From Candidatus Microgenomates bacterium (GTDB lineage: Bacteria; Patescibacteriota; Microgenomatia; Daviesbacterales; UBA10151): a stretch of 64,000 nucleotides of DNA. Below are positions 20,953-63,585 of the stretch, one piece after another. Location: NCBI GenBank assembly GCA_016182045.1, contig JACOYE010000011.1, positions 39 through 64,038 on the forward strand, given 5' to 3'. Below the pieces are notes generated by a model. It did no database searches. It worked only from the letters and a program-made list of their open reading frames with translations, and was not told the origin of the DNA. Numbering within the stretch: position 1 is the first letter of the stretch; the number at the start of each line of letters is the position of its first letter. Both the position numbers and the translations under genes were made by a program.

Positions 20953-20982
20953 TTGTTAAATATTAGCTTAATTTTCAAGTAC

Positions 20983-21011
20983 CAATTTACAATTTCCAAT
21001 CAAATATCAAT
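20983..21011. repeat. AT-rich intergenic repeat, copy 1 (aatttacaatttccaatcaaatatcaatg)
   Basis: 27/29 identical to 61846-61874. Both are followed by cattg/caatg/ttgaaaat-rich low-complexity sequence. Confidence 0.5.
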
Positions 21012-21079
21012 GATTAAATTTTCAAAACATTGATAAATTGAAAATTCATTGAAAATTGAGAATTAAAAATTGAAAAATT

Positions 21080-22132
21080 TCATTTTCCGAATAATCTTAA
21101 CAGAAAAACCTTTAGTGGAGTCAATTTGTCTATGGCAGTAAAAGCCAAATATAGTGGCCAATTAAAAACCAAATCATATGTTCCGATATATTCCACAAGT
21201 TCCCCACCATATCCCTGTTTAAACTTATGAAATCCATACCAGGGATCAGATTCTTTGGCATCGGGCCCTAATGCTCCCCACACGTCAAATTTCTTAAGGC
21301 CTAATTTTTTACCAAGTTTGATTGCTTGCCAAGCCACTAAATTTGAAGCCATCACATTTTTATATTCTAAAGATGAGCCGCCATAAGGATAATAAAGAGT
21401 ATCTTTGAAATTTAAAAGCATCCAGGCAGTGATCGGATGTCGGATGTCAGAGTTCGGAAGTCGGTAGAAAGCAATCAACAGCCTCGCCATGTTAACCTTC
21501 TTTAATGTTTCCCAGACCTTTTGATGATACTCTTTATTATGTCCATGATAACCTTGGCGTTTGGTGGTTTCAAAATAAAGTTTTAGATAAATTTCAAAAG
21601 CCTCATCATCTGTTCTTTCTTGAATTTCCACCCCATTTCTTTGGGCAATTTTAATGTTATATCTGGTTTTTGGGTGCATATTTTTTAAAAGTTCTTCTTC
21701 GGATTTGGTTAGATCAATTATGAAATTATATTTGGTGAATAAAGGCTTGGGAGAGGGTAAAAGATCTCTGGCCATTTTTTTTAATTGGATCCCTGCTCGC
21801 TTCGCGAAGCGAGCCTTCGCAGGGACGACGTCTGGTTCTACTTTTATGAAAGCACAATTATATTCTTTGCCAAGTTTTTTCAAAGCCTCTGCTAAATCCT
21901 TATTTGGAAAAGGACCTTTTGGTAAATAGCCAACATACTGACTGGTGAAAGGAATCTTGTGCAGAGTTAGTTGGAAGGCTTTTTGTAGTTTTCCATTTTT
22001 GTAAAGACCATAGCGCAAAAGTGGAATCCCCAAGGATTTTCGAAACTTCCCCCATTCCCAGGATTGAATGACATGGGTAACTAATTTGTCATATTGAGAT
22101 CTTTGTTTATCTGTAATTGGTCGAAGGTCCAC
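21080..22132 (-). CDS. FemAB-family peptidoglycan interpeptide-bridge aminoacyltransferase-like protein
   Basis: Its length, the N-terminal WEWGKFRKSLG and the C-terminal NLVAWQAIKLGKKLGLKKFDVWG resemble the FemABX family. It contains an in-frame GC-rich palindrome. Confidence 0.6.
   Translation of the reverse strand: MDLRPITDKQRSQYDKLVTHVIQSWEWGKFRKSLGIPLLRYGLYKNGKLQKAFQLTLHKIPFTSQYVGYLPKGPFPNKDLAEALKKLGKEYNCAFIKVEPDVVPAKARFAKRAGIQLKKMARDLLPSPKPLFTKYNFIIDLTKSEEELLKNMHPKTRYNIKIAQRNGVEIQERTDDEAFEIYLKLYFETTKRQGYHGHNKEYHQKVWETLKKVNMARLLIAFYRLPNSDIRHPITAWMLLNFKDTLYYPYGGSSLEYKNVMASNLVAWQAIKLGKKLGLKKFDVWGALGPDAKESDPWYGFHKFKQGYGGELVEYIGTYDLVFNWPLYLAFTAIDKLTPLKVFLLRLFGK
21791..21826. repeat. GC-rich palindromic element inserted in-frame in the FemAB-like gene (ccctgctcgcttcgcgaagcgagccttcgcaggg)
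   Basis: Contains the 20-bp perfect palindrome gctcgcttcgcgaagcgagc flanked by ccctgc/gcaggg. Confidence 0.6.
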
Positions 22133-26588: not shown

Positions 26589-26619
26589 AGTTTGTAAGAT
26601 TTCAGTTAAAATTTAGGTA
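26589..26619 (+). repeat. Direct repeat DR-A copy 1 (agtttgtaagatttcagttaaaatttaggta, 31 bp)
   Basis: Perfect identity with 27602-27632. Together the copies bracket the GC-rich segment. Confidence 0.9.
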
Positions 26620-26917
26620 AATTTTCAATGTTTGGAGGCTAAAGTATTGAAAAATATGTTAAAATATCATTGAAATCTTATGCCAGAAAGGATAAGGATC
26701 GTATTTCTACCTTCAGGACTACTCCGATAGAGGTAAATTACGAGCTATCAACACGGAAACAGAAGCACCAAAGCAGCCGCCGATAGAACGTTTAAAACGA
26801 CTCTTAGTAGGGTGGGCAAGGCGTGGTCGCACAGGGACAGAAGCAAATCCAGAACAACAGATATTAACTCCTGTCCGTCTTAAAGACTATCTTCTACAAG
26901 CAGCAAAAAGCCCATCG

Positions 26918-27556
26918 TTGGCAGTTAATCCCATGCCTAAAGTTTTTGACCTTGGGGAATTTGGAAGAGAAGCAGAAAGATTATTGCACCTATCCCTGAG
27001 AGATCCTAAACACCCGGAGTATGCCTCAATAGCTTGCATTAACGATAAAGGTCGGCTCGTCATCTTAAAGGAACCCATCCGAGGTGATGAGAGGAGCGTT
27101 CCGGTTCCCGCCCCCAAGGATAAACGCAGGGTCCTTTTGCTACATACCCACGGTGACACTGATACTCCTTTCTCCGCAAGTGATTTAGAGGGCTTATTTG
27201 TGCCCTCAGCCGAGAATGGGGTTCCAGCCGTGCTTCTCGCCACTCCGAGTCTGAAAATGCTGATTCTTCGCACCAAAGATACTCCCTATCTCACGCCGCT
27301 TCAAATTGAAGATAGGACTGTGATGATGTGGCTCCACCCAGCTACGGAAGAGGAGAGAAAACTATTCGAAGCTGGTTATCAGGCAGCGGGCGGTGAAGAA
27401 GCCGATAGGCCACCAGAGCTTACTCCAGAGTATAAGCAAGCCCTTCGTCAGCTCAGCAGCAAGCGAATGTTCGTGCTCACCCGCGCTGCCCATGAGTATA
27501 ATCTCAAAGGCTACTCTTGCCCATCTAACCAGAATATTGTGTCACTTCTCAGCTAA
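26918..27556 (+). CDS. JAB/MPN (JAMM) metalloprotease-domain protein on a GC-rich foreign segment, probably 5-prime truncated
   Basis: LLLHTHGDTDTPFSASDL is a perfect HxHx7SxxD JAMM/RadC-like motif, with an upstream Glu in ILKEPIRGDE. The frame is open from 26696 (74 codons upstream of the TTG start) with no start codon. GC is roughly 50% by eye against AT-rich flanks. Confidence 0.5.
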   Translation: MAVNPMPKVFDLGEFGREAERLLHLSLRDPKHPEYASIACINDKGRLVILKEPIRGDERSVPVPAPKDKRRVLLLHTHGDTDTPFSASDLEGLFVPSAENGVPAVLLATPSLKMLILRTKDTPYLTPLQIEDRTVMMWLHPATEEERKLFEAGYQAAGGEEADRPPELTPEYKQALRQLSSKRMFVLTRAAHEYNLKGYSCPSNQNIVSLLS

Positions 27557-27601
27557 CCCGCATCTTTAGTGGCGAGCCAGAAAATGGTGGGGTCACTTCC
27601 C

Positions 27602-27632
27602 AGTTTGTAAGATTTCAGTTAAAATTTAGGTA
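27602..27632 (+). repeat. Direct repeat DR-A copy 2
   Basis: Identical 31-mer to 26589-26619. It abuts DR-B copy 1. Confidence 0.9.
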
Positions 27633-27633
27633 G

Positions 27634-27653
27634 TTTTCCCCTAGACAATTTTT
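27634..27653 (+). repeat. Direct repeat DR-B copy 1 (ttttcccctagacaattttt, 20 bp)
   Basis: Identical 20-mer at 28540-28559. The copies bracket the two-gene NTase cassette. Confidence 0.8.
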
Positions 27654-27679
27654 GGCTTTGGAAATGGTATAATTAAGGT

Positions 27680-27943
27680 ATGTATAACTGGTCTGTTGAT
27701 GAAAAAAGGTTTAAAAAGGAAAACCCTAAAGAGTATAGACTGTGGAGGTTGGTGCAGCTGATAAACTATGGACTGGATGGAGAAAAACTGGATAGGGAGG
27801 AGGTCAAAAAAGCCTGGCCGAAGATTAAAGATCAGCTTGATCCATATAAGGCTAGGGCAATAGAATATTTATTATGGGGAAAGCTATACTCACTCCCGAA
27901 CAACTTAACTTTCTGGAATTTATCCAAAAAGAACAACAAATAA
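27680..27943 (+). CDS. Small hypothetical protein upstream of and overlapping the NTase gene (candidate partner/antitoxin)
   Basis: 87-aa ORF. It overlaps the next ORF by 70 nt in another frame. No family recognised. Confidence 0.3.
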   Translation: MYNWSVDEKRFKKENPKEYRLWRLVQLINYGLDGEKLDREEVKKAWPKIKDQLDPYKARAIEYLLWGKLYSLPNNLTFWNLSKKNNK

Positions 27944-28539
27944 CCAAACGCTTTTATTGGACCGGCGGAACAGTTCTTTCTGAATTCTACCTGCAACACA
28001 GACTTTCGGAAGATATAGATTTATTCAATGAATTTGAGGAGGTAAATCAGAGTTTAATAGATGCTTTCTTAAAAAAGATTTCACCTTCACTTCAAGTAAC
28101 AGAGATTAAGAAAAGTCAGTTTTTAGGTTTAGTGAGTTATATCTTGGTTTTTAAAAATAGTCAGAAACTAAAAATAGATTTTAATTATTATCCATTTCCT
28201 AGAATTGAAAAAGGCAAGAAATATAAAAATTTAGAGATAGACAGTATTTATGATATTGCTGTAAATAAAGTGCATACTATGTTTATGCGGACAAAAGCCA
28301 GGGATTTTGTTGACATTTATTTCATCATGAAAACAATTGATTATCATTTAGATCAGCTCATCAGGGACGCGAAGGTTAAGTTTGACTGGCATATTGATAA
28401 AGTTACTTTGGCCAGTCAATTTATGAAAGTCAAAGAAATTAAAGATTTACCTAAAATGTTGTTACCATTTAATCAAAAAGATATGGAAAAATTTTATCTA
28501 AAGCTGGCTAAATCTTTAGAAGAAGAGATCTTAAAATAA
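27874..28539 (+). CDS. Pol-beta-superfamily nucleotidyltransferase, AbiEii/DUF1814-like (abortive-infection / type IV TA toxin family)
   Basis: YWTGGTVLSEFYLQHRLSEDIDLF matches the GG...S.DhD NTase motif and AbiEii N-terminal architecture. 221 aa. Confidence 0.55.
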   Translation: MGKAILTPEQLNFLEFIQKEQQITKRFYWTGGTVLSEFYLQHRLSEDIDLFNEFEEVNQSLIDAFLKKISPSLQVTEIKKSQFLGLVSYILVFKNSQKLKIDFNYYPFPRIEKGKKYKNLEIDSIYDIAVNKVHTMFMRTKARDFVDIYFIMKTIDYHLDQLIRDAKVKFDWHIDKVTLASQFMKVKEIKDLPKMLLPFNQKDMEKFYLKLAKSLEEEILK

Positions 28540-28559
28540 TTTTCCCCTAGACAATTTTT
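28540..28559 (+). repeat. Direct repeat DR-B copy 2
   Basis: Identical to 27634-27653. It lies immediately upstream of trxA. Confidence 0.8.
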
Positions 28560-50730: not shown

Positions 50731-51981
50731 ATGGCTCAGGCACGAACAGAGTTCGCAGCTGCTTTAAATCAAATAGCCTCTGAAAAAGGGGTGGATGTGG
50801 AGGTGGTTTTGGATGCCATCCGTCAGGCTGCCTTGGCTGCCTATAAAAAAGATCTAGTATTAAGAAATGAAATTGTGCCTGATGATTTTGAAGAATTTAC
50901 CTCTGAAGTTAACCCTGTCAGTGGGGAAATAACCATCTTACATAAAGATAAAAATGTCACCCCTTCGGGTTTCGCCAGAATAGCCGCCTCAATTGCCAAA
51001 CAAGTGATTATGCAACGGCTTAATGAGGCTGAAAGAGGTGCTATACTCTCAGAATACTCAAATAAAGTTGGCACAGTGATATCCGGGTCTATCCAAAGAC
51101 AGGAAGGTTCAACCTTCTTTGTTGATTTGGGAAGAGCCGAGGGAGTATTACCTCCTTCCGAACAAGTTCACACAGAAATTTACAGCCAAAATCAAAGGAT
51201 GAAATTTTATGTCAAAGAAATAAGAGAAGGCGGGCGGGGTTCGGAGGTGATTGTTTCCAGGTCTGATCCAAATTTGGTTAAGGCTCTATTTGCTTTAGAA
51301 GTGCCGGAAATTCAATCAGGAGCAGTTGAAGTGAAAGTGATTGCCAGAGAGGCTGGTTCAAGAACTAAAATTGCAGCTGTCTCAACCCAAGAAGGTGTTG
51401 ATCCTGTTGGGTCTCTGGTTGGACAAAAAGGAGTCAGGGTTCAAGCTGTAATGAGTGAGTTGGGGGAGGAAAAGATTGATATTATCAGCTATTCGGATGA
51501 TCCAGCCAGATTTATAGCTGCAGCGCTATCTCCTGCCAAAGATATTCAGGTTAAATTAAATGAGGCTGACAAGGTGGTAACCGTGATCGTTCCTTCATCT
51601 CAATTATCTCTGGCCATTGGGAAAGGTGGACAAAATGTCAGATTGGCTGCCAAATTGACTGGATGGAAAATAGATATAGTGGGAGCTGAGGAACCCGCCT
51701 CCGCTGACTCGGCCTCCGTAGCCACTTCGGCGAAGGAAGCAGCTACGGCGGGCAAGCCAGCAGCTGAAGCTGTGGAAGAAAAAGCTGAGGGTGAAATTGA
51801 GACTGTGGGTACTGGAGAAAGGAAAGAGAGGCCTGGTACTGCGCCAGCTCCAGCTCAGGCTACATCAGATGATCCAAAAGCTGCTCAAGATATTGAAAAA
51901 GATAAGAAATCCGCCGACGCTAAAGCTATGGCGGACAAGAAAGCTGATAAAAAGAGTAAAGCCAGTAAAGAATCTAAGTAA
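50731..51981 (+). CDS. nusA: Transcription termination/antitermination factor NusA with long Ala/Lys/Glu-rich C-terminal tail
   Basis: NusA N-terminal domain, S1 and two KH domains (LAIGKGGQNVRLAAKLTGWKIDI). Confidence 0.9.
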   Translation: MAQARTEFAAALNQIASEKGVDVEVVLDAIRQAALAAYKKDLVLRNEIVPDDFEEFTSEVNPVSGEITILHKDKNVTPSGFARIAASIAKQVIMQRLNEAERGAILSEYSNKVGTVISGSIQRQEGSTFFVDLGRAEGVLPPSEQVHTEIYSQNQRMKFYVKEIREGGRGSEVIVSRSDPNLVKALFALEVPEIQSGAVEVKVIAREAGSRTKIAAVSTQEGVDPVGSLVGQKGVRVQAVMSELGEEKIDIISYSDDPARFIAAALSPAKDIQVKLNEADKVVTVIVPSSQLSLAIGKGGQNVRLAAKLTGWKIDIVGAEEPASADSASVATSAKEAATAGKPAAEAVEEKAEGEIETVGTGERKERPGTAPAPAQATSDDPKAAQDIEKDKKSADAKAMADKKADKKSKASKESK

Positions 51982-52001
51982 TATGGAAAGGGTTTTTTAT
52001 T

Positions 52002-53456
52002 ATGGAACAAACACGACCACCTATTGTAACTATCCTTGGCCATGTTGATCATGGTAAAACCACATTGCTTGACTTTATAAGAAAATCCTCTGTTGCATCT
52101 CGTGAACATGGAGGTATAACCCAACATATTGGGGCATATCAGCTTGAACATGATGGTAAATTGATTACTTTTATTGATACCCCTGGCCATGCTGCCTTTG
52201 AAAAAATGCGCTCCCGAGGTGCCCAGGTAGCAGACATTGCTGTTTTGGTGGTGGCAGTAGATGATGGAATCATGCCTCAGACAGTTGAGGCCATCAAGCA
52301 TATTCAAGAAGCTAAGGTATCAATGATAGTGGCTGTTAACAAAATTGATCTGCCGGGCATAGATATTAAAGTCTCCTTAGAAAAAATTAAAAAACAATTA
52401 TCTGATAGAGATATAAATATTGAAGAATATGGTGGAGATGTTCCATTAGTTTCTTTATCTGCCAAAACTGGCGAGGGGGTAGATAAGCTTTTAGAGGTGA
52501 TACTTTTGGTGGCAGAATTGCATGAGCTAAAAGGAGATCCACAAACTCAACCTGTTGGTGTGGTGATTGAATCAAATTTGGATAAGTTTAAAGGGTCTGT
52601 GGCAACACTACTTATCAGAAATGGAACCCTTAAAAAGGGTGATCAGATCATGGTTGGTGGAGTTAAGGGAAAAGTGAGAGGGATGTTTGATTGGGATGGT
52701 AAAAGTGTGGAATCTGCTGGACCATCTATGCCTGTTGAGGTATTAGGTTTGGAGGCAGTTTTAGAGGTGGGAGCAGTGTTGGGAGAAGAAGTGAAAAGTG
52801 GTCAGGGAAAAGGGAAAAGTGAAACACAAAATCTGGTGGATAGATTGAGAGAGGGTGGAAAGAAAACTCTCAAGGTTATCATTAAAGCTGACAAGCAGGG
52901 GTCTTTGGAGGCTATCAAGACCTCTTTAGAAAAATATAACGAGGAGAGAGAAGTTGTCAACTTTATCTTTACAGGCACAGGAGAGATTGGCGAGGAAAAT
53001 GTCAAGCTGGCAGCAACTGTTGGGGCAATTGTGGTGGGTTTTAATGTGAAAGTAGCTCCTCAAACTCAAAGACTAGCTGAGAATGAGCATGTGCTGATTC
53101 GAACCTACAATATTATATATGAGTTGTTAGAAGATATAGAGGAAGTAGTTAATACTTTGCTTGAGGTAGGACAATTGGAGGAAGTTTTAGGGAAAGCCAA
53201 TATTATTGCCGAATTTCCCTATGGAAAAGCAGAGAGAGTTGCTGGATGTAGGATTTTGGAGGGAACAATTGCCAAGGGACAAAGGATTAGAGTCGTTCGT
53301 GATGGCACAACTATTGGTGAAACCAAACTTAAATCCTTAAGAAAAGTTAAAGAAGAGGTTAATAAGGTAGAGAAAGGTTCTGATTGCGGAATATTATTTG
53401 ATCCCCAAATAGATTTTCAAATTGGGGATATAGTGGAAAGCTTTAGGGTAATTTAA
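52002..53456 (+). CDS. infB: Translation initiation factor IF-2 (short form lacking N-terminal extension)
   Basis: [27 protein letters not shown] and NKIDL. 484 aa. Confidence 0.9.
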
Positions 53457-54591
53457 GAGATGGAGCTCTCCATAATGGTCTACAAAGTGATAGCCACTCT
53501 GAGCTAAAAGGGCCTATGTTTGATCTCCATGAAAATACTCCACTGCCTTGATGTACCAATAAACCTTTATTTTTTGCTGCTTCGAAGATGCTATCATTAA
53601 TATCAAATATTGCTAAATCTTCAGGTGATAAAAGGTTTCTATATTTCATTGTTCCAAATGCAGGTGCAGTATGCCAATGTCCGCTACAATCGAGATCATC
53701 ACCAACCTTAGCGAATGCCTCTAGTTGGTCTATAGGAGGAACAGTTGAATTGGTGAAATACACAGCATTTGCACTGAAATATAAATGTGGTGCTATATCT
53801 TGAATGTTGGGTGCCATGATTTCATATCTATCTAAGACTGCCTCTGCCAGTGTCTTTTGATGTTCTCTTATATATAGTAGGTGAGAAAATTCTTTAGCTA
53901 GTATCAATTTTTTGGCTATATTGGAGGCATAGATGAAACTATTATCCAACCTTACTTCTTCAATTAATGCTTCATCCACTCTGGCTATAACAGTTTTTGT
54001 TTCTTCTCCAGTATGCCTGTCAACTACTGTGGTTTCTACTCCAACTCCTTGTCCACCTATATCTATTGAGCCAAGAGCACGAGTAGTATTTAATAAATTT
54101 GTTAATCTTACCTTCATAGGTTCTGATCCATTATATAAAGGTATAAATCTTTGTAACTGATCAGGATTAGTTTGAGAAAGTACAATAAGTTCGCCTACCT
54201 CTGAAAACCCAGGTAAATCAGAAGATTGCGAGATATCATGACCCATTGCGATAACTAACTCTTTTGGAAAATATCTATCTTTGTATCTACCCCAATCTCT
54301 ATATGGATTATCACTTTGGGCACTTAATTTATCAAGTAGGATTTTGCCGCTAATCCCTAAGGCTGAAGCTGCAGCTGCTCCTCCTATAACCCTTCCTAAA
54401 AGCAACAAAAACTTTCTTCTGCCTGGATCTTTTGGATGATCGTTCCTGTTTTGTACTGAGCTGATTCTATCTCTTTGCTCCCTCTGTTTGCGAGCCCTAG
54501 AAAATTCCAGAATAGAACTATCTAAGGGGTTTATAAATCCGCCGGTTTCAATCATGAAGAGTATTATAATATGTACCCTATAATAAATCAA
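53443..54591 (-). CDS. Hypothetical exported protein with twin-arginine-like signal (RRKFLLLLGRVIGGAAAASALG)
   Basis: Tat-like N-terminus. No catalytic family recognised. Convergent 14-nt overlap with the infB end. Confidence 0.35.
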   Translation of the reverse strand: MIYYRVHIIILFMIETGGFINPLDSSILEFSRARKQREQRDRISSVQNRNDHPKDPGRRKFLLLLGRVIGGAAAASALGISGKILLDKLSAQSDNPYRDWGRYKDRYFPKELVIAMGHDISQSSDLPGFSEVGELIVLSQTNPDQLQRFIPLYNGSEPMKVRLTNLLNTTRALGSIDIGGQGVGVETTVVDRHTGEETKTVIARVDEALIEEVRLDNSFIYASNIAKKLILAKEFSHLLYIREHQKTLAEAVLDRYEIMAPNIQDIAPHLYFSANAVYFTNSTVPPIDQLEAFAKVGDDLDCSGHWHTAPAFGTMKYRNLLSPEDLAIFDINDSIFEAAKNKGLLVHQGSGVFSWRSNIGPFSSEWLSLCRPLWRAPSLKLP

Positions 54592-54789
54592 ATGACTAAT
54601 TTGTTGAGGCTACACACCCGGTGTGTAAAGCTAATTATACCGGGTTTGTAATTTATCCAATCAAGGTGTTTTGAGCACAAAATATTCTAAAAATCCCGAG
54701 GTGTAGCTACATTTCTACCTCCGAGGTGGAATGTTGGAGGCGTAATACTGAAATTGACATAATTATGTTTTTATGCTTCAATATAAGTA

Positions 54790-55056
54790 ATGAATTACGC
54801 AAGAACAACGCTCACTTTAGATGAGAATATTTTAAGAGAAGCTAAAAAATTGGCAGCGGATCAGAGAAAACCCCTGAAAAGAATTGTGGAAGCTGCCCTA
54901 AAAACTTATATTGAACAAAAAGGGAATACAAAGAAATTAACTCTGACTGATTTTCCTGTCTTTAATCTAGGACAGATAAATGAAAAATTAACTGGAAGAA
55001 GAAATCTATATAGCGATTATCTTAATAGTAAATTTCCTGCTGATAAAAAGTTATAA
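54790..55056 (+). CDS. VapB-like antitoxin (small DNA-binding protein) of a VapBC module
   Basis: 88 aa. Its stop abuts the PIN gene start (taaatg). Confidence 0.5.
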   Translation: MNYARTTLTLDENILREAKKLAADQRKPLKRIVEAALKTYIEQKGNTKKLTLTDFPVFNLGQINEKLTGRRNLYSDYLNSKFPADKKL

Positions 55057-55497
55057 ATGTATCTTTTGGATTCCAATATTTTAATTTATGCTCATAATTT
55101 AGCATCACCTTTCCATAAAACTGTTCGTTCATTAGTGGGCGAGGTTTTAGCTGGAAGAATTGAGGGTTGTGTATCTTTTCAAAATCTTTATGAACTTTAC
55201 TCAATAATTACAGATTCAAAAAGGGTTGAAAAACCATTATCAGTTAAAGATGCCAGAAAAATTTTACTTCTCTACTTGAAAGCAGACAATTTTCCTAAAA
55301 TTTATTCTAAAAACACAAATCTAGCTGTAACTTTAGAATTGTTGAAATCTGCTGATATTAAAAAACAGCAAATTTTTGATTTAATCCTGGTAGCGACTAT
55401 GATTGAAAATGAAGTTAAAGGAATTTATACAGCTGATGAAACATTTTTTAAAAAGTTTAAATTTTTAGAAGTGATAAATCCTTTTAAAGATAGTTAA
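55057..55497 (+). CDS. vapC: PIN-domain toxin VapC
   Basis: MYLLDSNILIYA... with conserved acidic residues (D5, E, D-ETF near the C-terminus). Confidence 0.75.
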   Translation: MYLLDSNILIYAHNLASPFHKTVRSLVGEVLAGRIEGCVSFQNLYELYSIITDSKRVEKPLSVKDARKILLLYLKADNFPKIYSKNTNLAVTLELLKSADIKKQQIFDLILVATMIENEVKGIYTADETFFKKFKFLEVINPFKDS

Positions 55498-55521
55498 GAA
55501 TTATCTAATCAAATTTTCAGA

Positions 55522-55558
55522 TAGGTGATGGAGTGGAATCTTTCAGGGTAATTTGATT
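55522..55558 (+). pseudogene. Orphan duplicate of the infB 3-prime end (encodes QIGDGVESFRVI*)
   Basis: The true infB ends [12 protein letters not shown] at 53421-53456. This 12-codon copy lies 2 kb downstream, directly before the DHH-like gene. It differs at synonymous sites, including Ser AGC vs TCT. Confidence 0.5.
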
Positions 55559-55595
55559 TGCAATTATGGGATAGTTATAGTAGAATTCAAGCACA

Positions 55596-56675
55596 GTGAA
55601 ATACGATAGTCAAATTAGTGAGCTTAAAAATTTACTGCCTACTGCTAAATCTGTTTTGATTGCCCTGCCTGTTGGAGCTGACATAGATAAATTGGCAGCA
55701 GCCCTTGCATTATTTTTAGTGCTTGAAGCGTCTGGTAAAGAAGTAACAGTTGTTTCTGATGATACCATTACCGTGGGTCAATCACATCTTTTCGGAGTAG
55801 ATCATATCTCAAAAAATCTTCCCTCTGGTCAAGGTGGTAATTTAACCTTAACTTTAGAGGGGGTAGCCTCCTCAAATGGTACCATTCCAGCCTTGGAAAA
55901 ATTGGATTGGTATGCCCAAAATAATAATTTAAATTTGGTTTTCCATGTTATTGCAGGTCAAATGTTTCGACCCTCAAGAATTGTGTCACATTATCAAGGC
56001 AGTGGTTTTAATTTAAATTTTGTGGTGGGAGCAGCCAATTTGGACAGCTTAGGCTCAATTTATAAGCAAAACTCCGACAGTTTTTCCGGTGTACATATTG
56101 TCAATATTGATAATCAAGGCAATACCGGCTTTGGTACTACCAATATTTTGGATACCAATGCCTCATCTATATCTGACATAATGGCTAATTTAATTATTGA
56201 TCTTGGTTTGAACTTGGATGCAGATGCTGCCTCAAACCTTTTAACAGGAATTTTTGATGCTACCAACAATTTATCGGATCCAAGAATTTCTGCAGATACA
56301 TATATGGTGGTGGCTAACTTATTAAGAGCAGGAGGGAAAAAGCCCTTCGACTCCAGTTCGGCTTCGCTCACTGCAGGCGCTCAGGGCAGGCCAGCCACAC
56401 CACAAGCTCCCCGGCCAGATTTATCTGCTTTGATTCCACCAGAACTTCCGTTGGTCAGTGAGATGTCAACACAACCAGTGGCTGAATTCACCCCGATCCC
56501 GATAGAATCGGGACCGATTGAATCGGGGTTCACCACCCCACCTGTGGTGTCCCAACCAGCCGGGAATAATCGACCCTCTCCTGAGGAAAGACCTGTACAG
56601 GAGGGTGTAGTCTCCGAAACCATTGAACCGGAATGGCTAACCCCCAAAATCTTTAAAGGTACATCACTGGGGTAA
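55596..56675 (+). CDS. DHH-superfamily (NrnA-like) protein with degenerate catalytic motifs and Pro-rich C-terminal tail
   Basis: NrnA-like N-terminus (SVLIALPVGADIDKLAAALAL) but DHH reduced to DHI and no GGGH. It contains an in-frame family 2 GC-rich element. Confidence 0.4.
   Translation: MKYDSQISELKNLLPTAKSVLIALPVGADIDKLAAALALFLVLEASGKEVTVVSDDTITVGQSHLFGVDHISKNLPSGQGGNLTLTLEGVASSNGTIPALEKLDWYAQNNNLNLVFHVIAGQMFRPSRIVSHYQGSGFNLNFVVGAANLDSLGSIYKQNSDSFSGVHIVNIDNQGNTGFGTTNILDTNASSISDIMANLIIDLGLNLDADAASNLLTGIFDATNNLSDPRISADTYMVVANLLRAGGKKPFDSSSASLTAGAQGRPATPQAPRPDLSALIPPELPLVSEMSTQPVAEFTPIPIESGPIESGFTTPPVVSQPAGNNRPSPEERPVQEGVVSETIEPEWLTPKIFKGTSLG
56343..56388. repeat. GC-rich palindromic element, family 2-like, in-frame in the DHH-like gene
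   Basis: cccttcgactccagttcggcttcgctcactgcaggcgctcaggg. Confidence 0.5.
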
Positions 56676-56685
56676 GATTTAGCTT

Positions 56686-57261
56686 ATGGCATTCAGGGAA
56701 CAAAAAAAATTTGGAGAAGAATTTAATCCATTTACAGGCTTAAGAAAATTAAAAGGACCAAAAACAGATGATGTAGTGGGTAGATCGAGGGGGTTTATCT
56801 TAGAAAATGCAATAGAAGGTTGTGTAGTAATTGGTAGAGAAGCACATATTTTTGATAATGATGCTGCAAGTCTACTTTCTGTAGAAGAAAAAAATGTAAT
56901 TATACGACCATTTAGTGCAGCACTCGGAACATTGTTTGTCCTCCTAGAGATTTTAAAAGAGACAACTCCCTTAGATATTACTTGTCAAATTAGAGTAGAA
57001 GATGTAGTGCTGATAGGGAGAAATGATTGGGTTTGGGACAATACAGCTGATAGGGAGCAAGGGGGGTTATTTAGTAGGTTTTTTATACCCGGCAATTATG
57101 ATATCTATACTCAGTTAGTGGTTGATACAGATCTAAAAAACCCAAACAGTACGTTGCATAGAATGCAGTTTAAATTTAATATTAAGTCCCTACCAGAAGA
57201 GTTAATAAATAGGCATAATACAACTGCATTTTCATATTACGTGTTTGTACCCTTGATGTAA
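56686..57261 (+). CDS. Hypothetical protein
   Basis: 191-aa ORF, no family recognised. Confidence 0.3.
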   Translation: MAFREQKKFGEEFNPFTGLRKLKGPKTDDVVGRSRGFILENAIEGCVVIGREAHIFDNDAASLLSVEEKNVIIRPFSAALGTLFVLLEILKETTPLDITCQIRVEDVVLIGRNDWVWDNTADREQGGLFSRFFIPGNYDIYTQLVVDTDLKNPNSTLHRMQFKFNIKSLPEELINRHNTTAFSYYVFVPLM

Positions 57262-57305
57262 ACCTGATTTGATTGTACCATTTCATTGTACGATCGCACA
57301 CCAAA

Positions 57306-57410
57306 ATGGTTAAGATGCCACTTGATCCAAAAATAAAGCAGAAGATCATTAAAGAGTTTGCTACCAAGAGCGGTGATGCTAAATACCCATGCCGGGTATG
57401 GGTTAAGTAG
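57306..57410 (+). pseudogene. Orphan 5-prime fragment paralogous to rpsO ([28 protein letters not shown]...)
   Basis: 20 of the first 22 residues are identical to the true S15 N-terminus ([21 protein letters not shown] at 58109). About 78% nt identity, with mostly synonymous differences. It then diverges and stops. Confidence 0.55.
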
Positions 57411-57440
57411 ACATGCCAGGATTATCTAAGCTGTGTTGTT

Positions 57441-57830
57441 TCACTCTTCCCCACTAATTATTGTCATTTTTCCAAATAGGGATTTTTTGGTGGATTTATT
57501 TAAAAGAGAGGTTAATTTTTTATCAATCTGATCGAGTGTTAGATTTGGAGATACACCAATTACACCAGTTGATCTACTTGTTGATACTAAAGGTTTGAAG
57601 TGTTTAATATTGAGAGTGACAAGAATTCTTTCTTCCTGTTTGGCAAGATCATAAACTTTTGTATCAGAAGATGCGCCTTGTTTATAGTCTCCAGCAACAT
57701 GTTTGACATCAAATCTGCTGTTTGTAACAGGTAAATCTTTTCTATAGTAGAACCCTTCATCAAGCAGCAACTTGTGTTTGTAAAATTTCCGGGGCATCTT
57801 TAGCAGAGCTGAGCTTTTCAACCAATTCAT
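57441..57830 (-). CDS. DUF5615 (Mut7-C/PIN-like) putative toxin
   Basis: KLLLDEGFY...DVKHVAG...ERILVTLNIKHF, paired with the upstream DUF433 gene. Confidence 0.55.
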   Translation of the reverse strand: MNWLKSSALLKMPRKFYKHKLLLDEGFYYRKDLPVTNSRFDVKHVAGDYKQGASSDTKVYDLAKQEERILVTLNIKHFKPLVSTSRSTGVIGVSPNLTLDQIDKKLTSLLNKSTKKSLFGKMTIISGEE

Positions 57831-58002
57831 TGACAGCGCCCTTTATAGTTCTTAAAGATACCCAAGGATATCCTTCTTGAATTGATTCAATAGTATGACC
57901 TTCTTTGAGGCGTGCTACGATCACTGCTATTGGTATTCTGGTACCAACTATACAAGGTGCACCACCCATAATATCAGGTTTGGAGGTGATATACTTTTTC
58001 AT
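57760..58002 (-). CDS. DUF433 putative antitoxin
   Basis: KPDIMGGAPCIVGTRIPIAVIVARLKEGHTIESIQEGYPWVSLRTIKGA matches DUF433. Confidence 0.6.
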   Translation of the reverse strand: MKKYITSKPDIMGGAPCIVGTRIPIAVIVARLKEGHTIESIQEGYPWVSLRTIKGAVNELVEKLSSAKDAPEILQTQVAA

Positions 58003-58108
58003 GCTGTCATCATAGCATAACCTTGCATATTTTAAAAGTTTCTGGTAGAATACAGCAAATGTGAATTAAGGACGACTTTGGCATCAAAGTTGTTCCAGAA
58101 AGGTTTAG

Positions 58109-58378
58109 ATGCCGTTAGATGCAAAAATTAAGCAAAAGATAATCAAGGAATTTGCCACCAAAGATGGTGATACGGGTTCCCCTGAAGTTCAAGTAGCCCT
58201 TTTAACCGAACAGATTAAAAATTTGACAGCTCATCTTAAGGAGCATCCGCATGATATTCACTCAAGGAGAGGACTTCTGTCCATGGTTAACAAAAGAAGA
58301 AGATTACTGCAATATCTGGTTAAAAAGGATGAAGAAAGGTATAAGACTGTTATTGAAAAGCTAGGTTTATCCAAATAA
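58109..58378 (+). CDS. rpsO: 30S ribosomal protein S15
   Basis: [57 protein letters not shown]... Confidence 0.95.
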
Positions 58379-58399: not shown

Positions 58400-60781
58400 A
58401 TGAACAAAGTTATTACAAAAGAGATAGATCTAAATGGTCGCAAGTTGAAACTTGAAACTGGCAAATTGGCTTTGCAAGCTGATGCTTCAGTAGTGGTATC
58501 TTGGGGCGAAACAGTAATTTTGGCAACTGTGGCTACCCAGCCTCAAAAAGAAGATATTGGTTATTTTCCATTATCTGTTGAATATGTGGAAAAACACTAT
58601 GCCGGCGGAAGAATTTCCTCTTCCAGATTTATTAAAAGAGAAAGTAAACCCACTGATGAGGCTATCTTGACTGGTAGATTGATTGATCGCTCTATCCGTC
58701 CACTTTTCCCCAAAGATTTTAAAAATCAGGAAGTACAGGTGATTTTAACTGTTTTATCAGTTGATCAAAACAATGATCCTGATATTGTCGGTTTGATTGG
58801 AGCCTCTGCTGCACTTTCCATCTCCTCAGTGCCTTGGAGCGGACCAATTGCTGCTATCAGAGTGGGTGAGCGGGATGGCAATTTGGTGGTAGATCCCACC
58901 ATAGATCAGATGGAACATCTTAACATGGATCTTATAGTCGCTTCAACCAAAGACAAGGTGGTAATGATAGAAAGTGAAGCTAAACAAACTTCAGATGAGG
59001 TGATTTTTTCAGGCATCAAGGAAGCCCATGCTCAAGTCCAGCCGATCATTGAGCTGATAGAGCAGTTTAGTAACCAAGCAGGCAGAGAGAAGCAAACCTA
59101 TTCTCATTTGGTGGAAGAGGTGGAAGAGGCACTGCTTTTGGAGGTGAAAAAGATCACTAAGGAAAGAATTGAGGCTGCACTTTTTGACAATGAACATCCT
59201 TGGCATGAGGCAACTGGTGATTTGATCAAAAAAGAATTGGCTCTTCAATATGCAGAAACTTTAACTCCTCAGATAATTTCCGGAATTTTTGATAAGGTAG
59301 CCAAAGAAATCTTGCACGAGGCAGTTCTTAAAAAAGGTAAAAGAGTTGATGGCAGGGCCATGGATGAGATTAGGCATTTGGAGATGGAAGTAGGAATTTT
59401 ACCAAGAACTCATGGATCTGCTCTTTTTCAGCGGGGTGACACACAAATTTTGTCTGTGGTAACCTTAGGCGCTCCATCCTTGCAACAAACTTTGGAGGGG
59501 ATGGAAGGTGAGAGGCAAAAAAGATTTATGCATCATTACAATATGAGTATCAATCCTTTTTCTGTGGGTGAGGTTAAAAGGTTGGGTCCTCCAAATCGAC
59601 GTGATATCGGTCATGGATCTTTGGTGGAAAAAGGTTTAAATGCGGTGATTCCTTCCGAGGATAAGTTTCCCTATGCCATCAGAGTGGTATCAGAAGTCTT
59701 GGCAGCCAATGCTTCCACCTCAATGGCCGCTCTTTGTGGATCAACCTTGGCATTACTTGATGCCGGTGTACCTTTGTCAGAATCTGTGGCAGGAATTGCC
59801 TTGGGACTTTTGACTGATGGTGATAAATGGCAGGTCATTACCGATATGAGGGCTGTAGAGGACTTTTACGGTGATATGGATTTTAAGGTGGCAGGTACTA
59901 AAAATGGAGTGACAACAATTCAGATGGATACTAAACTTGACGGATTAACTTTTGAGATTATTGAGAAAGCACTGGAAATGGGTAAAAAGGCCAGGCTAGA
60001 AATCTTAGAACAGATGAATAAAGTAATAGCGGCTGCTGGTCCTTTATCTCCTCATGCTCCCAGAGTGGAGATATTACATATAAAACCAGAAGAGATTGGT
60101 TTGCTAATTGGGCCTGGAGGTAAAAATATTAATGGCATAATTTCCAAAACTGGAGCACAGATTGATATTGAGGATGATGGGACTGTGATGGTTTCTGGGA
60201 CCAACTCGGAAGGGGTGGATAAGGCAATTGCCTCAATTGAAGGCATGTTTAAACAAGTCAATGTAGGGGATGAGTTTTTAGGCAAGGTGGTCAGAATTGC
60301 TCCTTTTGGAGCTTTTGTGGAGATTGCTCCTGGAAAAGACGGATTGGTTCATATTTCCCAGATGGCTCCAGGACATGTGGAAAGACCAGAGGATGTGGTG
60401 ACTGAGGGGCAAGAAGTGAAGGTGAGGGTAACTGATGTTTCTCCAGAAGGAAAAATTGGCTTATCCATGCTTTTTGGAGCAGACGTAAAAAAGGAATCTG
60501 AAAGCAGGCCTAGAAGTAGTAGTTTTAGACCAAGACCTTCATTTGGAAACTCGCCTCGCTTCGCGGGCGGAGCGGGTAGATCAAGATCATCAGGTGGTGG
60601 GTATAGATCGGGAGGGGGCAGACGGGATTTTGGTGTAAGTGAGAGAAGAGGGCCTTTTGATAGAACCAGGGCCAGATTTGAAAGAAAACCATTTGGAGCA
60701 AGAGGTGGGGGAAGACCTGCCCGCCGAAGCGGTTTTGGCGAAGGCGGGGATAGAGGTGGACGTGGTGGCTTCAATAGATGA
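58400..60781 (+). CDS. pnp: Polynucleotide phosphorylase with Arg/Gly-rich C-terminal tail
   Basis: Two RNase PH domains, KH (LIGPGGKNINGI), S1, then an RGG-rich ~100 aa tail. Confidence 0.95.
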   Translation: MNKVITKEIDLNGRKLKLETGKLALQADASVVVSWGETVILATVATQPQKEDIGYFPLSVEYVEKHYAGGRISSSRFIKRESKPTDEAILTGRLIDRSIRPLFPKDFKNQEVQVILTVLSVDQNNDPDIVGLIGASAALSISSVPWSGPIAAIRVGERDGNLVVDPTIDQMEHLNMDLIVASTKDKVVMIESEAKQTSDEVIFSGIKEAHAQVQPIIELIEQFSNQAGREKQTYSHLVEEVEEALLLEVKKITKERIEAALFDNEHPWHEATGDLIKKELALQYAETLTPQIISGIFDKVAKEILHEAVLKKGKRVDGRAMDEIRHLEMEVGILPRTHGSALFQRGDTQILSVVTLGAPSLQQTLEGMEGERQKRFMHHYNMSINPFSVGEVKRLGPPNRRDIGHGSLVEKGLNAVIPSEDKFPYAIRVVSEVLAANASTSMAALCGSTLALLDAGVPLSESVAGIALGLLTDGDKWQVITDMRAVEDFYGDMDFKVAGTKNGVTTIQMDTKLDGLTFEIIEKALEMGKKARLEILEQMNKVIAAAGPLSPHAPRVEILHIKPEEIGLLIGPGGKNINGIISKTGAQIDIEDDGTVMVSGTNSEGVDKAIASIEGMFKQVNVGDEFLGKVVRIAPFGAFVEIAPGKDGLVHISQMAPGHVERPEDVVTEGQEVKVRVTDVSPEGKIGLSMLFGADVKKESESRPRSSSFRPRPSFGNSPRFAGGAGRSRSSGGGYRSGGGRRDFGVSERRGPFDRTRARFERKPFGARGGGRPARRSGFGEGGDRGGRGGFNR
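60549..60576. repeat. GC-rich element, family 1, within the pnp tail
   Basis: actcgcctcgcttcgcgggcggagcggg. Confidence 0.5.
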
Positions 60782-60805: not shown

Positions 60806-61831
60806 ATGGATTCTGCCCGAGCGACAATTGATCAGCTGAAGATAAAGTTAAGCCAAGCTAGCCTACCTTCTGATATATCTGAAAAACTTTTAAATCTTCT
60901 ACAGTTTCCAGGCACGGGAGCGGAACTTGAAAAGTTGATTGCTTACATTGATTTTGTAGTTTCCCTGCCTTTTAACAAATTAAGCCAAGATATTTTGGAC
61001 CTTCCCAGAGCCAAAGAAATTTTGGATAAAAATCATTATGGTTTGCAATCTGTTAAAGATAGAATCCTGGAATATTTGGCAGTTTTAATCTTAAACAAAA
61101 GAAAAAGCTACGCTCAAGCCTTTGGACATGCTCCGATTTTGGCCTTTATTGGTTTGGCGGGTAGCGGTAAGACATCTTTGGCTTATTCTATTGCAGAATC
61201 TTTGGGAAGACCACTTCAGAGAATTCCTTTTGGAGGTTTGGGTGATCCTTTAATGCTTCGTGGTCAATCCCGTGTTCATCTGGATTCTGAACCAGGTCAA
61301 ATTATCAAAGCTATAAAATCTGCAGGAGTTAATAATCCGGTCATACTTTTGGATGAGATTGACCGGGTGGAACAAGATAGAAGGGTGGATATTATGGGCG
61401 TTTTGGTGGAACTTTTGGATCCTGCCCAAAACCAAGCTTTTTTGGATCATTATCTGGATTTCCCTTATGATTTATCACAAGTTTTATTTATTGCCACAGC
61501 CAATAATACCTCAAATATAGCCACAGCTGTTTTGGATAGATTAGAGCCAATTCAGATGCCGTCTTATTCAGACGAGGAAAAAATCACTATTGGTAAAAAT
61601 TATCTTTTGCCAAAAATTATTGAGGAAAATGGTTTGGGATCTGATATGCTGATGATAGATGAGATGGCCTGGCCGCAAATCATCAGACCACTGGGATATG
61701 ATGGGGGGATAAGATCTTTACAAAGAAGTTTGCAAAGTATCTGCAGAAAAGTGGCACGGGGGGTGGTGGAAGGGGAGATAGGGCCTTTTAAGGTGGGAGT
61801 GGAGAATGTGGGAGAATACTTAGGAGGATGA
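60806..61831 (+). CDS. Lon-type AAA+ ATPase module lacking both the N-terminal substrate domain and the C-terminal protease domain
   Basis: NHYGLQSVKDRILEYLAVL, Walker A GLAGSGKTS, Walker B ILLDEIDR, sensor FIATANN...LDRLEP. It ends at the ...GEYLGG boundary where the Lon protease domain would begin. Confidence 0.6.
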   Translation: MDSARATIDQLKIKLSQASLPSDISEKLLNLLQFPGTGAELEKLIAYIDFVVSLPFNKLSQDILDLPRAKEILDKNHYGLQSVKDRILEYLAVLILNKRKSYAQAFGHAPILAFIGLAGSGKTSLAYSIAESLGRPLQRIPFGGLGDPLMLRGQSRVHLDSEPGQIIKAIKSAGVNNPVILLDEIDRVEQDRRVDIMGVLVELLDPAQNQAFLDHYLDFPYDLSQVLFIATANNTSNIATAVLDRLEPIQMPSYSDEEKITIGKNYLLPKIIEENGLGSDMLMIDEMAWPQIIRPLGYDGGIRSLQRSLQSICRKVARGVVEGEIGPFKVGVENVGEYLGG

Positions 61832-61845
61832 AATTTTCAATTTTT

Positions 61846-61874
61846 AATTTACAATTTTTAATCAAATATCAATG
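61846..61874. repeat. AT-rich intergenic repeat, copy 2
   Basis: aatttacaatttttaatcaaatatcaatg. 27/29 identical to 20983-21011. Confidence 0.5.
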
Positions 61875-61893
61875 TTTTAATGTTTGAAAATTT

Positions 61894-63585
61894 ATGAAAA
61901 TGTTTAAACCAAAACAATTTATACCAGATCAAGGCCCAGGCCTGAAATTAATTCCATTGGGGGGAGTAGGGGATGTGACCAAAAATATGTATGTTTATGA
62001 GATGGGTAATGACATCATCATTATTGATTGTGGAGTGGGTTTTCCCGATGAGGCCATGCCGGGAGTAGACCTGGTTATTCCCGACATCTCTTATTTGAGA
62101 GGAAAACAAGATAAAATCAGAGCAATTTTAATTACCCACGGACATGAAGATCATATCGGCGGACTGCCCTATATTTGGCCCCAGCTTCAGGTTCCCATTT
62201 ATACCCAAAGATTAACAGCCGGATTTATCAGAGCCAAATTCTCAGAACATAATTTGCCAAAAAATAAAATTATAGAGGTAAAGCCAGATCAAAAATTAGA
62301 TTTGGGTATATTTAAAGTTTCTTTTTATCTGGTGTCACACTCTGTGCCAGATTCTACCGGAATAGTTTTAAAAACACCCCTTGGTACAATTATCCATCAG
62401 GCTGATTTTAAGATTGATTGGACACCGGTATCAGGACAGGTGACTGATGTGGGAACAATTGCCAACTTGGGGAAGGAAGGGGTTTTGCTTTTACTGATAG
62501 ATTGTCTAAGAGTAGAAAAGCCCGGTTTTAACAGATCGGAAAAATCAATAGAAGCTTCTTTTGAGAAAGCGGCCTTGGAAACGAAGGGCAAGCTTTTAAT
62601 AACCATGACCTCATCGAATGTGTCCAGGATGCAACAAGCCGTCAGCGTGGCCCAACGTTTAGGCAGGAAGGTGGCTGTGGTTGGCCGTTCCTTTGAAAAT
62701 AATGTTCAGGTCTCCCGGGATTTAGGGTACTTGCATGTTCCTTCCTCAGTTATGATTACCCCGGATGCCATATCCTCCTTTGATCCCAACAAAATTTTGG
62801 TACTGATCGCCGGTGCTCAAGGTCAGCCTGATTCATCCTTAGTACGAGCTGCCAATGATGAGCACAAACAGGTTAAACTAAGGGAAGGTGATAGTGTATT
62901 ATTTTCAGCCGATCCCATACCTTCCACAGAATCAGCTCAAAATGCCCTGATTGATGATTTAACCTCCAGAGGGGTTGATGTTTATTATTCAGCCATAGCC
63001 TCTGATTTGCATGTATCCGGTCATGCAGCCTTGGAGGAATTGAGATTGGTGGTCAATTTAATAAAACCCAACTTTTTGATACCGATCGGTGGAACCTTTA
63101 GACATATGAAGGCTTTCTCAAATATGGTTTATGAAATGGGTTATCAAAAAAAACAGGTTTTGGAAATAGAGGAAGGGGAGGTGGTAGAGGTGAGAAAAGA
63201 TAGTATAAAACCTTCAGGTAGAGTAGATGTGCAAAATGTCTATGTTGATGGACTGGGGGTGGGTGATGTAGGTCATATAGTTTTAAGAGACAGAAGAGTG
63301 ATGAGTGAGGAGGGAGTGGTGGTAGTGGTGGTGCCCATTGATCAACGTACGGGAAAATTGATAGGTGAGCCGGATATCATCTCAAGAGGATTTGTATTTG
63401 AAGAATTTGCCTCGGACCTTTTGGAGGAGGCCAAAATAGAGCTTAAAAATACTTTGATTGAACATACCAAAAGAATGCCAGATTGGCGGTTTATCCGTAA
63501 GATGATTGAAGATGATTTGGGAAATTTCTTTTATTCTACGACACAAAGAAGACCACTGATTTTACCGGTGGTAGTGGAGGTATAG
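61894..63585 (+). CDS. rnj: Ribonuclease J (metallo-beta-lactamase/beta-CASP)
   Basis: HGHEDHIGG motif, beta-CASP region and overall 563-aa architecture. Confidence 0.9.
   Translation: MKMFKPKQFIPDQGPGLKLIPLGGVGDVTKNMYVYEMGNDIIIIDCGVGFPDEAMPGVDLVIPDISYLRGKQDKIRAILITHGHEDHIGGLPYIWPQLQVPIYTQRLTAGFIRAKFSEHNLPKNKIIEVKPDQKLDLGIFKVSFYLVSHSVPDSTGIVLKTPLGTIIHQADFKIDWTPVSGQVTDVGTIANLGKEGVLLLLIDCLRVEKPGFNRSEKSIEASFEKAALETKGKLLITMTSSNVSRMQQAVSVAQRLGRKVAVVGRSFENNVQVSRDLGYLHVPSSVMITPDAISSFDPNKILVLIAGAQGQPDSSLVRAANDEHKQVKLREGDSVLFSADPIPSTESAQNALIDDLTSRGVDVYYSAIASDLHVSGHAALEELRLVVNLIKPNFLIPIGGTFRHMKAFSNMVYEMGYQKKQVLEIEEGEVVEVRKDSIKPSGRVDVQNVYVDGLGVGDVGHIVLRDRRVMSEEGVVVVVVPIDQRTGKLIGEPDIISRGFVFEEFASDLLEEAKIELKNTLIEHTKRMPDWRFIRKMIEDDLGNFFYSTTQRRPLILPVVVEV

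Follow-up and report, generated by a model that had tools for sequence, protein, structure and literature searches.

Relic copies of infB and rpsO gene ends beside toxin–antitoxin cassettes in a Candidatus Daviesbacteria genome

In the genome of an uncultivated groundwater bacterium, the translation genes infB (initiation factor IF-2) and rpsO (ribosomal protein S15) are each accompanied by a second, orphan copy of one of their ends, and these copies lie among small inserts rich in toxin–antitoxin (TA) genes. How did such an end come to be present twice, and what does the second copy reveal about the way in which the inserts arrived? We addressed this question in a 64,000-nt stretch of contig JACOYE010000011.1 (hereafter the window), which was assigned on the basis of infB to Candidatus Daviesbacteria of the Microgenomates within the candidate phyla radiation (CPR), with 60–82% amino acid identity to Daviesbacteria infB and ~72–75% nucleotide identity to the nearest relatives. 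For comparison, species-representative genomes and metagenomes contributed 80 loci each, labeled with L-numbers; genes were assigned to families by using Pfam and NCBIfam, and synteny in the related loci was established by tblastn.

Both ends of all 66 long open reading frames (ORFs) of the window, 132 ends in total, were searched for additional copies, and an orphan was found for two of them only, the tail of infB and the head of rpsO. The last 14 codons and the stop codon of infB (T1, 53412–53456) recurred as T2 (55512–55556), with 79% identity over 42 nt without gaps. When the significance of the copy pairs was assessed by comparing the local alignment score with those of shuffled sequences, the infB pair scored 19.5, and the highest value among 60 shuffles was 13; at 42–45 nt, it stayed below significance in whole-window BLASTN alone. 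The homology of the rpsO pair (57301–57380 versus 58095–58174) extended from −14 to +66 of the gene and thus included the region of the ribosome-binding site (RBS), with 79% identity over 67 nt, a score of 32 (shuffle maximum, 12.5), and an E-value of 7e-9 in self-BLAST of the 64-kb window. The orphan head starts with an ATG at 57315, from which the frame is open for 31 codons, to 57410. The two S15 heads were identical at 19 of 22 residues (P5A, S19D, and A22T), not 20 as counted in the initial annotation of this DNA, and the orphan peptide agreed with the clade consensus at 21 of 21 positions; at the nucleotide level, the orphan was closer to the real heads of other species (8/66 differences) than to the resident head. 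Relatives without these inserts have one infB tail and one rpsO head each. Both fragments claimed in the initial annotation therefore exist and are significant at the nucleotide level. The infB fragment had been placed there at 55522–55558, 2–4 nt away from its position (QIGDGVESFRVI with its stop codon occupies 55518–55556), and an AGC/TCT serine switch ascribed to the rpsO pair belongs to the infB pair.

Contigs of the Logan assemblies from four Sequence Read Archive runs (SRR12113420/22/24/30) covered both orphans, matching the window at 100% over 51714–56373 and 56345–57507 and at 99.94% (one mismatch) over 56411–58098. Since these independent assemblies reproduced both orphans, an assembly error was excluded, which also settled the re-assembly check proposed with the initial annotation. 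The Logan contigs of the same population all ended at 58074–58098, in the rpsO leader, and at 56345–56411, a low-complexity 3′ part of the DHH-like gene located between infB and rpsO; these breaks suggested strain-level variation at both places.

The two orphans are situated in the backbone nusA–infB–DHH/NrnA-like gene–rpsO–pnp, which was conserved among ~160 related loci. The infB–DHH gap ranged from 22 nt to 3.8 kb (shortest, about 22–60 nt) and the DHH–rpsO gap from 83 nt to 4.9 kb (shortest, about 90–100 nt); gaps longer than 250 nt were present in ~36 of 74 and ~36 of 60 species-representative loci, respectively, and the pattern in the metagenome contigs was similar. Alignment to relatives, as had been suggested, thus revealed both intervals to be genuine insertion sites, with short-gap relatives on the one hand and about half of the loci carrying inserts on the other. 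In a census of 142 cargo ORFs, DUF5615 (9), DUF433 (8), CopG (4), Phd (3), YafQ (3), and BrnT (2) were found together with HepT, AbiEii, HicAB, and PIN; TA families dominated, bearing out the claim that the inserts are TA-rich, and the remaining cargo consisted of assorted metabolic or secreted proteins. The cargo between the same core genes differed across related genomes. The infB–DHH and DHH–rpsO intervals are accordingly two insertion hot spots in a conserved translation-gene cluster. No integrase or resolvase was present among the best 50 of 100 Pfam families for 142 + 42 cargo ORFs from the ~160 loci, and Phage_integrase, Resolvase, and Recombinase were absent from 20 large cargo ORFs scanned singly. 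Two transposases were found in the cargo, a DDE transposase (L081/L122) and an IS200-like Y1 transposase.

Two further features of the cargo in these hot spots were observed. In L107 (2432–2710), the cassette is reduced to a lone Phd antitoxin, while in L023 (11440–11977) a homologous Phd antitoxin is followed by an adjacent 88-aa ORF, presumed to be the toxin; the comparison exemplifies TA erosion within the hot spot, and related copies of this cassette occur in L010, L015, and L020. The 3.8-kb infB–DHH insert of L042 contains a 70-nt direct repeat with 90% identity (11448–11516 versus 12875–12944), which spans the promoter and start region of two cargo genes and is probably a tandem paralogue duplication.

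Orphan infB tails were also found in five other contigs, always downstream of cargo, which was HicB/HicA in L038 (= L132), a 66-aa protein plus AbiEii in both L041 and L047, the lone Phd antitoxin in L107, and an M23 peptidase in L021, where the tail has decayed. The orphan tails of the window and of L021 adjoin the conserved promoter spacer of the DHH-like gene at the ancestral spacing; in L038, L041, L047, and L107, it lies between two different cargo blocks. As for the relation to the cargo ORFs, a stop codon is found close upstream of the orphan in L041, the orphan of L038 is out of frame with hicA, and those of L047 and L107 are outside the called cargo ORFs, that of L047 being within a 21-codon mini-ORF. 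The cargo/orphan junctions shared neither a motif nor an inverted repeat. The rpsO-head orphan was specific to the window among ~60 rpsO loci.

To characterize the divergence of the copies, the observed amino acid conservation of each pair was compared with that expected from an equal number of random substitutions. In all six pairs, the conservation far exceeded this expectation (p <5e-5 to 1e-4; p = 1e-4 for the T1/T2 pair of the window). The stop codons were retained yet differed within pairs (TAA/TGA and TAG/TAA), and three pairs (window, L038, and L107) had a serine codon switched between AGY and TCN, families that are both in use in the real tails of relatives. The pooled proportions of synonymous (pS) and nonsynonymous (pN) differences were 0.52 and 0.11, and pS of the rpsO pair was 0.96. 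The distance between orphan and real end was 17/66 for rpsO and 11/45 for infB, against median between-species distances of the real ends of 18/66 and 15/45, respectively. Identical runs of 5–37 nt surrounded the Phe-Arg codons in every pair, the longest being the 37 identical nt shared by the two tails of L047; coding conservation alone would suffice for such runs. A divergence that conserves the protein and equals the distance between species indicates two alleles rather than a duplicate decayed in place. From the pattern of substitutions, the copies appear to have evolved as coding sequence in separate lineages, and an in situ duplication followed by neutral decay would not fit unless all the pairs had been overwritten later. 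The synonymous-dominated divergence reported in the initial annotation was thus reproduced (p ≤1e-4, with the pS values above in place of the proposed dS estimate), as was its judgment that a decayed target-site duplication is less likely.

Evidence for transfer was obtained from cargo shared between genomes. The AbiE cargo of L041 and L047 was 93–100% identical, against ~80–88% for infB, and the homology stopped ~12 nt before the stop codon of the orphan, the DNA beyond being unrelated. This break in colinearity inside the orphan implies that the cassette traveled along with the 5′ portion of the orphan and that the joint lies in the tail, and it lends weight to the earlier proposal that the fragments mark the joints of import. 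Similarly, the DUF5615/DUF433 module of the window was 88–94% identical to that of L036 at the nucleotide level, while most segments of rpsO/pnp were 67–80% identical (53–80% overall). A closer relationship between the cargo of two genomes than between their flanking core genes points to recent cassette exchange.

On the rpsO side, the anatomy turned out to be less simple than the initial annotation had it, in which the orphan head delimits the DUF433/DUF5615 module. The orphan lies 60 nt past the far end of this module, next to a gene specific to this genome, and its upstream DNA resembled the rpsO promoter or leader no more than shuffled sequences did. Moreover, the module together with the rpsO promoter and leader occupied its canonical position in eight species-representative genomes and five metagenome contigs that have no orphan, the loci with the module in the same place being L004, L018, L022, L029, L036, L044, L073, L079, L096, L097, L103/105, and L131. 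A 42-nt element (E) that precedes the orphan head is also present to the left of DUF5615 in L004 (13651–13692; 88% identity over 42 nt, E = 3e-9), next to different neighbor genes, and may be the shared left flank of the module; the L004 sequence behind it, ~52% identical to the rpsO head by our own count, is an uncertain candidate for a decayed head. The claim that each TA module is bounded by a duplicated gene end is therefore only partly borne out: the block on the infB side also contains a non-TA gene, and the rpsO orphan is no simple border of its module.

We lean slightly towards an explanation in which the cassettes were imported between diverged relatives with a joint inside a conserved gene end, the relics being second alleles. 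Small cargo blocks, mostly TA, would be gained, stacked, and exchanged between lineages that are apart at the species level. A second allele would be left behind wherever the recombination joint lay within the gene end and not beyond it, one complete end keeping the essential gene intact and the other allele persisting as a short non-coding relic beside the cargo, consisting of the last 45–63 nt of infB or the first ~80 nt of rpsO. The DNA of a diverged relative could be taken up by CPR bacteria, which carry comEC, pili, and recombination genes, and host recombination could integrate it, with the short segments of strong conservation at gene ends serving as anchors. A cassette located between two gene-end copies could then enter the gene end of any relative, whatever lies downstream, so that cargo blocks would become stacked behind infB with orphan tails between them, and TA addiction would oppose their loss by recombination between the repeats or the flanks. 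In this account, the uptake route, the recombination enzyme, the identity of the foreign copy in the window, and the origin of the first duplication are what we infer; of the initial annotation, in which the fragments came with the insert through homologous recombination, the import of a second allele stands, and the assignment of the foreign copy and the type of recombination share this inferred status. That interpretation was largely right in spirit, with its mechanism unproven and its rpsO side imprecise.

This explanation is in line with two points in the literature. Patescibacteria carry recombination genes as well as competence genes (PMC12455944), and TA islets have been proposed to move between genomes through recombination in the core genes on either side of them (PMC13617665). 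Common to those islets and the present locus are small islands of TA genes alone, located between conserved core genes, variably present among relatives, and devoid of genes of mobile genetic elements. The islet model, as set out there, depends on long stretches of core-gene homology in the flanks, from which clean replacement with no duplicated gene ends is predicted; relic alleles and a colinearity break within an orphan are extra features here.

Several observations weigh against import through a joint in the gene end. The pairs of the window are 74–79% identical with identical runs of ≤10 nt, so that RecA-type crossing-over within these copies would be very inefficient and is doubtful, leaving either an illegitimate joint or further divergence by later allelic replacement. 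The left ends of the orphan tails are clustered at ~−45 (window and L041/L047) and ~−63 (L038, L107, and L021), a hint of something more site-specific than random illegitimate joining. About 30 of the 36 occupied infB–DHH sites in the species-representative loci have no orphan. A search of ~150 real tails and ~100 real heads for the donor allele returned no donor, the best candidates having 6/45 and 8/66 differences, and no contig with infB of this genome in an empty site or another context was found. No breakpoint was mapped within infB of the window because all the relatives are only ~72–75% identical. Finally, the rpsO orphan, which has no promoter, leader, or recognizable donor context, demands at least one extra event.

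Site-specific integration has to be considered in this light. In streptococci, integrative and conjugative elements and integrative and mobilizable elements integrate at the 3′ or 5′ ends of conserved genes, which are partially duplicated in the attachment (att) sites attL and attR; cis-mobilizable elements (CIMEs) are decayed, integrase-less forms bounded by att sites, and such elements accrete in tandem. By analogy, an integrase encoded in the element or acting in trans might have targeted the 3′ end of infB or the 5′ end of rpsO, with an att site carrying the replacement end as in e14 or phage 21 at icd, and the present blocks would be decayed CIME-like remnants that kept their TA genes. 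We regard this as unlikely, even though it draws real support from the anatomy. In E. coli, e14 is a 15-kb prophage that integrates into icd, encodes its own integrase, and is excised upon SOS induction (PMC13626634, citing Hill et al., 1989); according to the same source, the functional gene runs into the insert and the displaced end icdC lies beyond it, with mostly synonymous or conservative differences between the two. The infB anatomy of six contigs is of this form, the two discrete classes of orphan left ends and the high divergence of the copies suit a short-core recombinase better than RecA, and the tandem cargo blocks with orphan tails between them resemble accretion at att sites. In contrast to e14, however, the inserts are tiny (0.35–2.1 kb) and carry TA genes, no recombinase family was among the best 50 of 100 for 184 cargo ORFs or in the 20 single scans, and one case concerns a 5′ end, where the anatomy is atypical in that real rpsO retains its native promoter and leader. 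Neither an integrase nor a relaxase, as expected from the streptococcal elements, was detected among the families listed for ~160 loci, no conserved att core was evident beyond the identical runs around the Phe-Arg codons, the cargo/orphan junctions have no common motif or inverted repeat, the region has neither a tRNA gene nor another classical att target, and an orphan head was found at one of ~60 rpsO loci. Should an integrase eventually be found, the locus would be an ordinary att-site remnant. An integron cassette was rejected as well, since no attC-like motif was present at the junctions and no integrase in the cargo ORFs examined (the rest of the window being unscanned).

Alternatively, the cassettes may have been inserted in situ with a target duplication of 45–80 nt, the allele-like divergence having been introduced later by homologous replacement from other lineages, which overwrote either the functional copy or the orphan together with the downstream gene. 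Restriction–modification (R-M) systems are known to be inserted with long target duplications, the repeats exceeding 30 bp, being single-copy at the empty site, and lacking associated mobility genes; most known cases come from species capable of natural transformation, and how such insertions arise has yet to be explained (Nobusato et al., 2000; Furuta et al., 2010, PMC2853133). The inserts of the window are similar in being addiction modules (TA, not R-M) of <20 kb, flanked by direct repeats of >30 bp (42–45 nt for infB and ~80 nt for rpsO) that are single-copy in the empty sites of relatives, without mobility genes; the 37 identical nt in the two tails of L047 and two cassettes with near-identical repeats of 31 and 23 nt elsewhere in the same genome (26.6–28.6 kb), one of them an AbiE TA, also favor such an origin. 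In the R-M systems, however, the repeats are near-identical (44/46 and 47/47), whereas the copies of the window are not, being 74–83% identical and of the allele type. In situ duplication would thus require an additional allelic replacement in each of six pairs, a neutral orphan should have gained random changes, frameshifts, and stop loss, as that of L021 alone did, and the divergence amounts to the full between-species distance; we therefore consider it quite improbable. Retention of the orphans for a function, with the infB tail serving as promoter DNA of the DHH-like gene and the rpsO head as an expressed 31-codon mini-ORF or an S15 decoy, seems very improbable. The orphan tail does end 2 nt before the conserved promoter-like −35 of this gene, and the orphan head retains an RBS-like sequence, an ATG, and the open frame; most insert-bearing relatives, however, keep the spacer without a tail copy, the conserved leader hairpin is missing from the rpsO orphan, which was found in a single genome, and the divergence is patterned by the codons of the two genes rather than by a promoter. 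Chance similarity or an assembly artefact is a negligible prospect: short as the infB copy is, the shuffle tests were passed, the correspondence is in frame and includes the stop codon, it recurs in five other contigs and is reproduced by the Logan contigs, and these two are the sole orphans among 132 gene ends. The pattern as a whole is a variant of known gene-end replacement and long target duplication, here with TA cassettes, in CPR bacteria, and with no visible recombinase.

Within the import of cassettes through gene ends, a more specific and rather doubtful possibility is that the copies act as portable homology arms, which would render TA cassettes mobile via host recombination without a recombinase of their own. 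If so, a cassette bracketed by two copies of an ultra-conserved gene end would circularize or enter as linear DNA and insert into that gene end in naturally competent CPR relatives, TA addiction would guard it against repeat-mediated loss, and successive arrivals would be stacked with relic tails between them. Neither the movement of chromosomal TA systems without transposases or integrases nor gene exchange in streamlined, uncultivated CPR bacteria has been well explained so far, and this locus offers a junction-level footprint in several species, including one transferred unit that demonstrably ends inside a relic. If the relics guide insertion, they would represent a simple host-recombination route for the spread of addiction and defense cassettes, and gene-end relics would serve as searchable markers of transfer in metagenome-assembled genomes.

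The features of the locus are summarized in Table 1.

Table 1. Features of the infB–pnp locus in the window.
Feature	Coordinates	Strand	Remarks
infB (IF-2, 484 aa)	52002..53456	+	Pfam GTP_EFTU/IF-2; functional tail T1 = 53412–53456
Cargo: hypothetical protein, 382 aa	53443..54591	−	Twin-arginine-like signal (GRRKFLLLLG); no Pfam/NCBIfam match
Dispersed element, 42 nt	54690..54731		Palindromic core TTCCACCTCCGAGGTGGAA; between the Tat-signal gene and vapB
vapB-like antitoxin, 88 aa	54790–55056	+	DUF6364, E = 1.8e-6; RHH_1 and VapB_antitoxin weak, below cut-off
vapC/PIN toxin	55057–55497	+	Pfam PIN, E = 8.5e-10
Orphan infB tail T2	55512..55556	+	NFQIGDGVESFRVI plus stop codon; outside all ORFs; in-frame stop 2 codons upstream
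Conserved spacer 5′ of the DHH-like gene	55557..55595	+	Promoter-like TTGCAA-N17-TAGAAT (55558–55586), promoter scan
DHH/NrnA-like backbone gene	55596..56675	+	Between infB and rpsO in all relatives; ~130 loci (tblastn synteny)
Cargo: hypothetical protein, 191 aa	56686..57261	+	No family match; unique to this genome
Element E and orphan rpsO head	57273..57380	+	E = 57273–57314; head = 57301–57380
DUF5615/DUF433 TA-like module	57441–57830/57760–58002	−	Pfam, E = 1e-11/2e-16; 71-nt overlap
Native rpsO promoter-like site and leader hairpin	58023..58108	+	TTGCAT 58023–28, N17, TAGAAT 58046–51; hairpin 58070–58096
rpsO (S15)	58109..58378	+	Pfam Ribosomal_S15; duplicated head region 58095–58174
pnp, right-hand backbone gene	58400..60781	+	tblastn synteny

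The gene calls of the initial annotation for vapBC, DUF433/DUF5615, and S15 agreed with the Pfam and NCBIfam assignments. The 3′ end of the gene with the twin-arginine translocation (Tat)-like signal runs 14 nt into the infB stop region. Its product had three database proteins, itself and two at 43–44% identity, and no copy of the gene was found in any of the ~160 related loci; the two homologs were tried as a clue to the donor and proved uninformative, both being on 1.4–1.5-kb contigs away from infB. Copies of the TTCCACCTCCGAGGTGGAA element were present in L010 and L157, in both within the infB–DHH gap, and in L021, L036, and L126/127; the element may serve as a terminator or an operator, or it may be a small mobile repeat. 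The vapB-like gene ends 1 nt ahead of vapC, an arrangement that fits a predicted type II VapBC operon. The VapC protein matched TIGR00028 with an E-value of 6.6e-18, at 65.3 bits below the curated cut-off of 73.6 bits. The GC content of vapBC was 27–31%, against 38–42% for the core genes.

The spacer upstream of the DHH-like gene was kept directly in front of it in many relatives, whether an insert was present or absent, and that of the window retains the ancestral distance from the infB stop codon to this gene. The backbone position of the DHH-like gene was evident in all the relatives, while its family assignment in the initial annotation was backed by weak NrnA/DHH structural similarity only (PDB 4ls9, E = 2e-4). 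Searches for proteins identical to the DHH-like gene product or to DUF5615 returned no match, probably due to differences in the start codon. The 191-aa cargo ORF had no tblastn match in ~160 related loci and was recovered in the Logan contigs of the same population.

The rpsO promoter-like site and leader were kept in relatives with or without inserts. A leader hairpin with the loop TGGCA(C/T)C was found by per-sequence folding in 77 of 102 Daviesbacteria loci; the stem arms vary among loci and still fold. The hairpin, which had no Rfam match, is a candidate leader for S15 autoregulation in CPR bacteria. The Rfam scan of the region gave a single sub-threshold snoRNA match (E = 0.32), and the tRNA scan of the region gave none.

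Outside the infB–rpsO region, direct repeats noted in the initial annotation at 26.6–28.6 kb proved to be real. Between uvrD and trx (26589–28559), two cassettes each lie between direct repeats of intergenic sequence that are almost identical, of which 26589–26619 and 27602–27632 (31/31) flank a GC-rich DUF4329 ORF and 27631–27653 and 28537–28559 (22/23) flank an AbiEi-like/AbiEii TA pair. These cassettes fit insertion of the R-M type with long target duplication better than the infB and rpsO copies do, and their near-identical repeats hint at more recent events of this type in the same genome. The AbiE block is ~70% identical at the nucleotide level to a block ~5 kb upstream of infB in L072/L154/L155; its identity with the AbiE element of L041/L047 was considered and rejected, as the proteins share only 32–41% amino acid identity. 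Intergenic repeats of 59–77 nt with 82–83% identity, one inverted and one direct, were further found between 61820–61894 and the segments 21015–21091 and 20970–21027, and 20972–21076 constitutes an imperfect palindrome.

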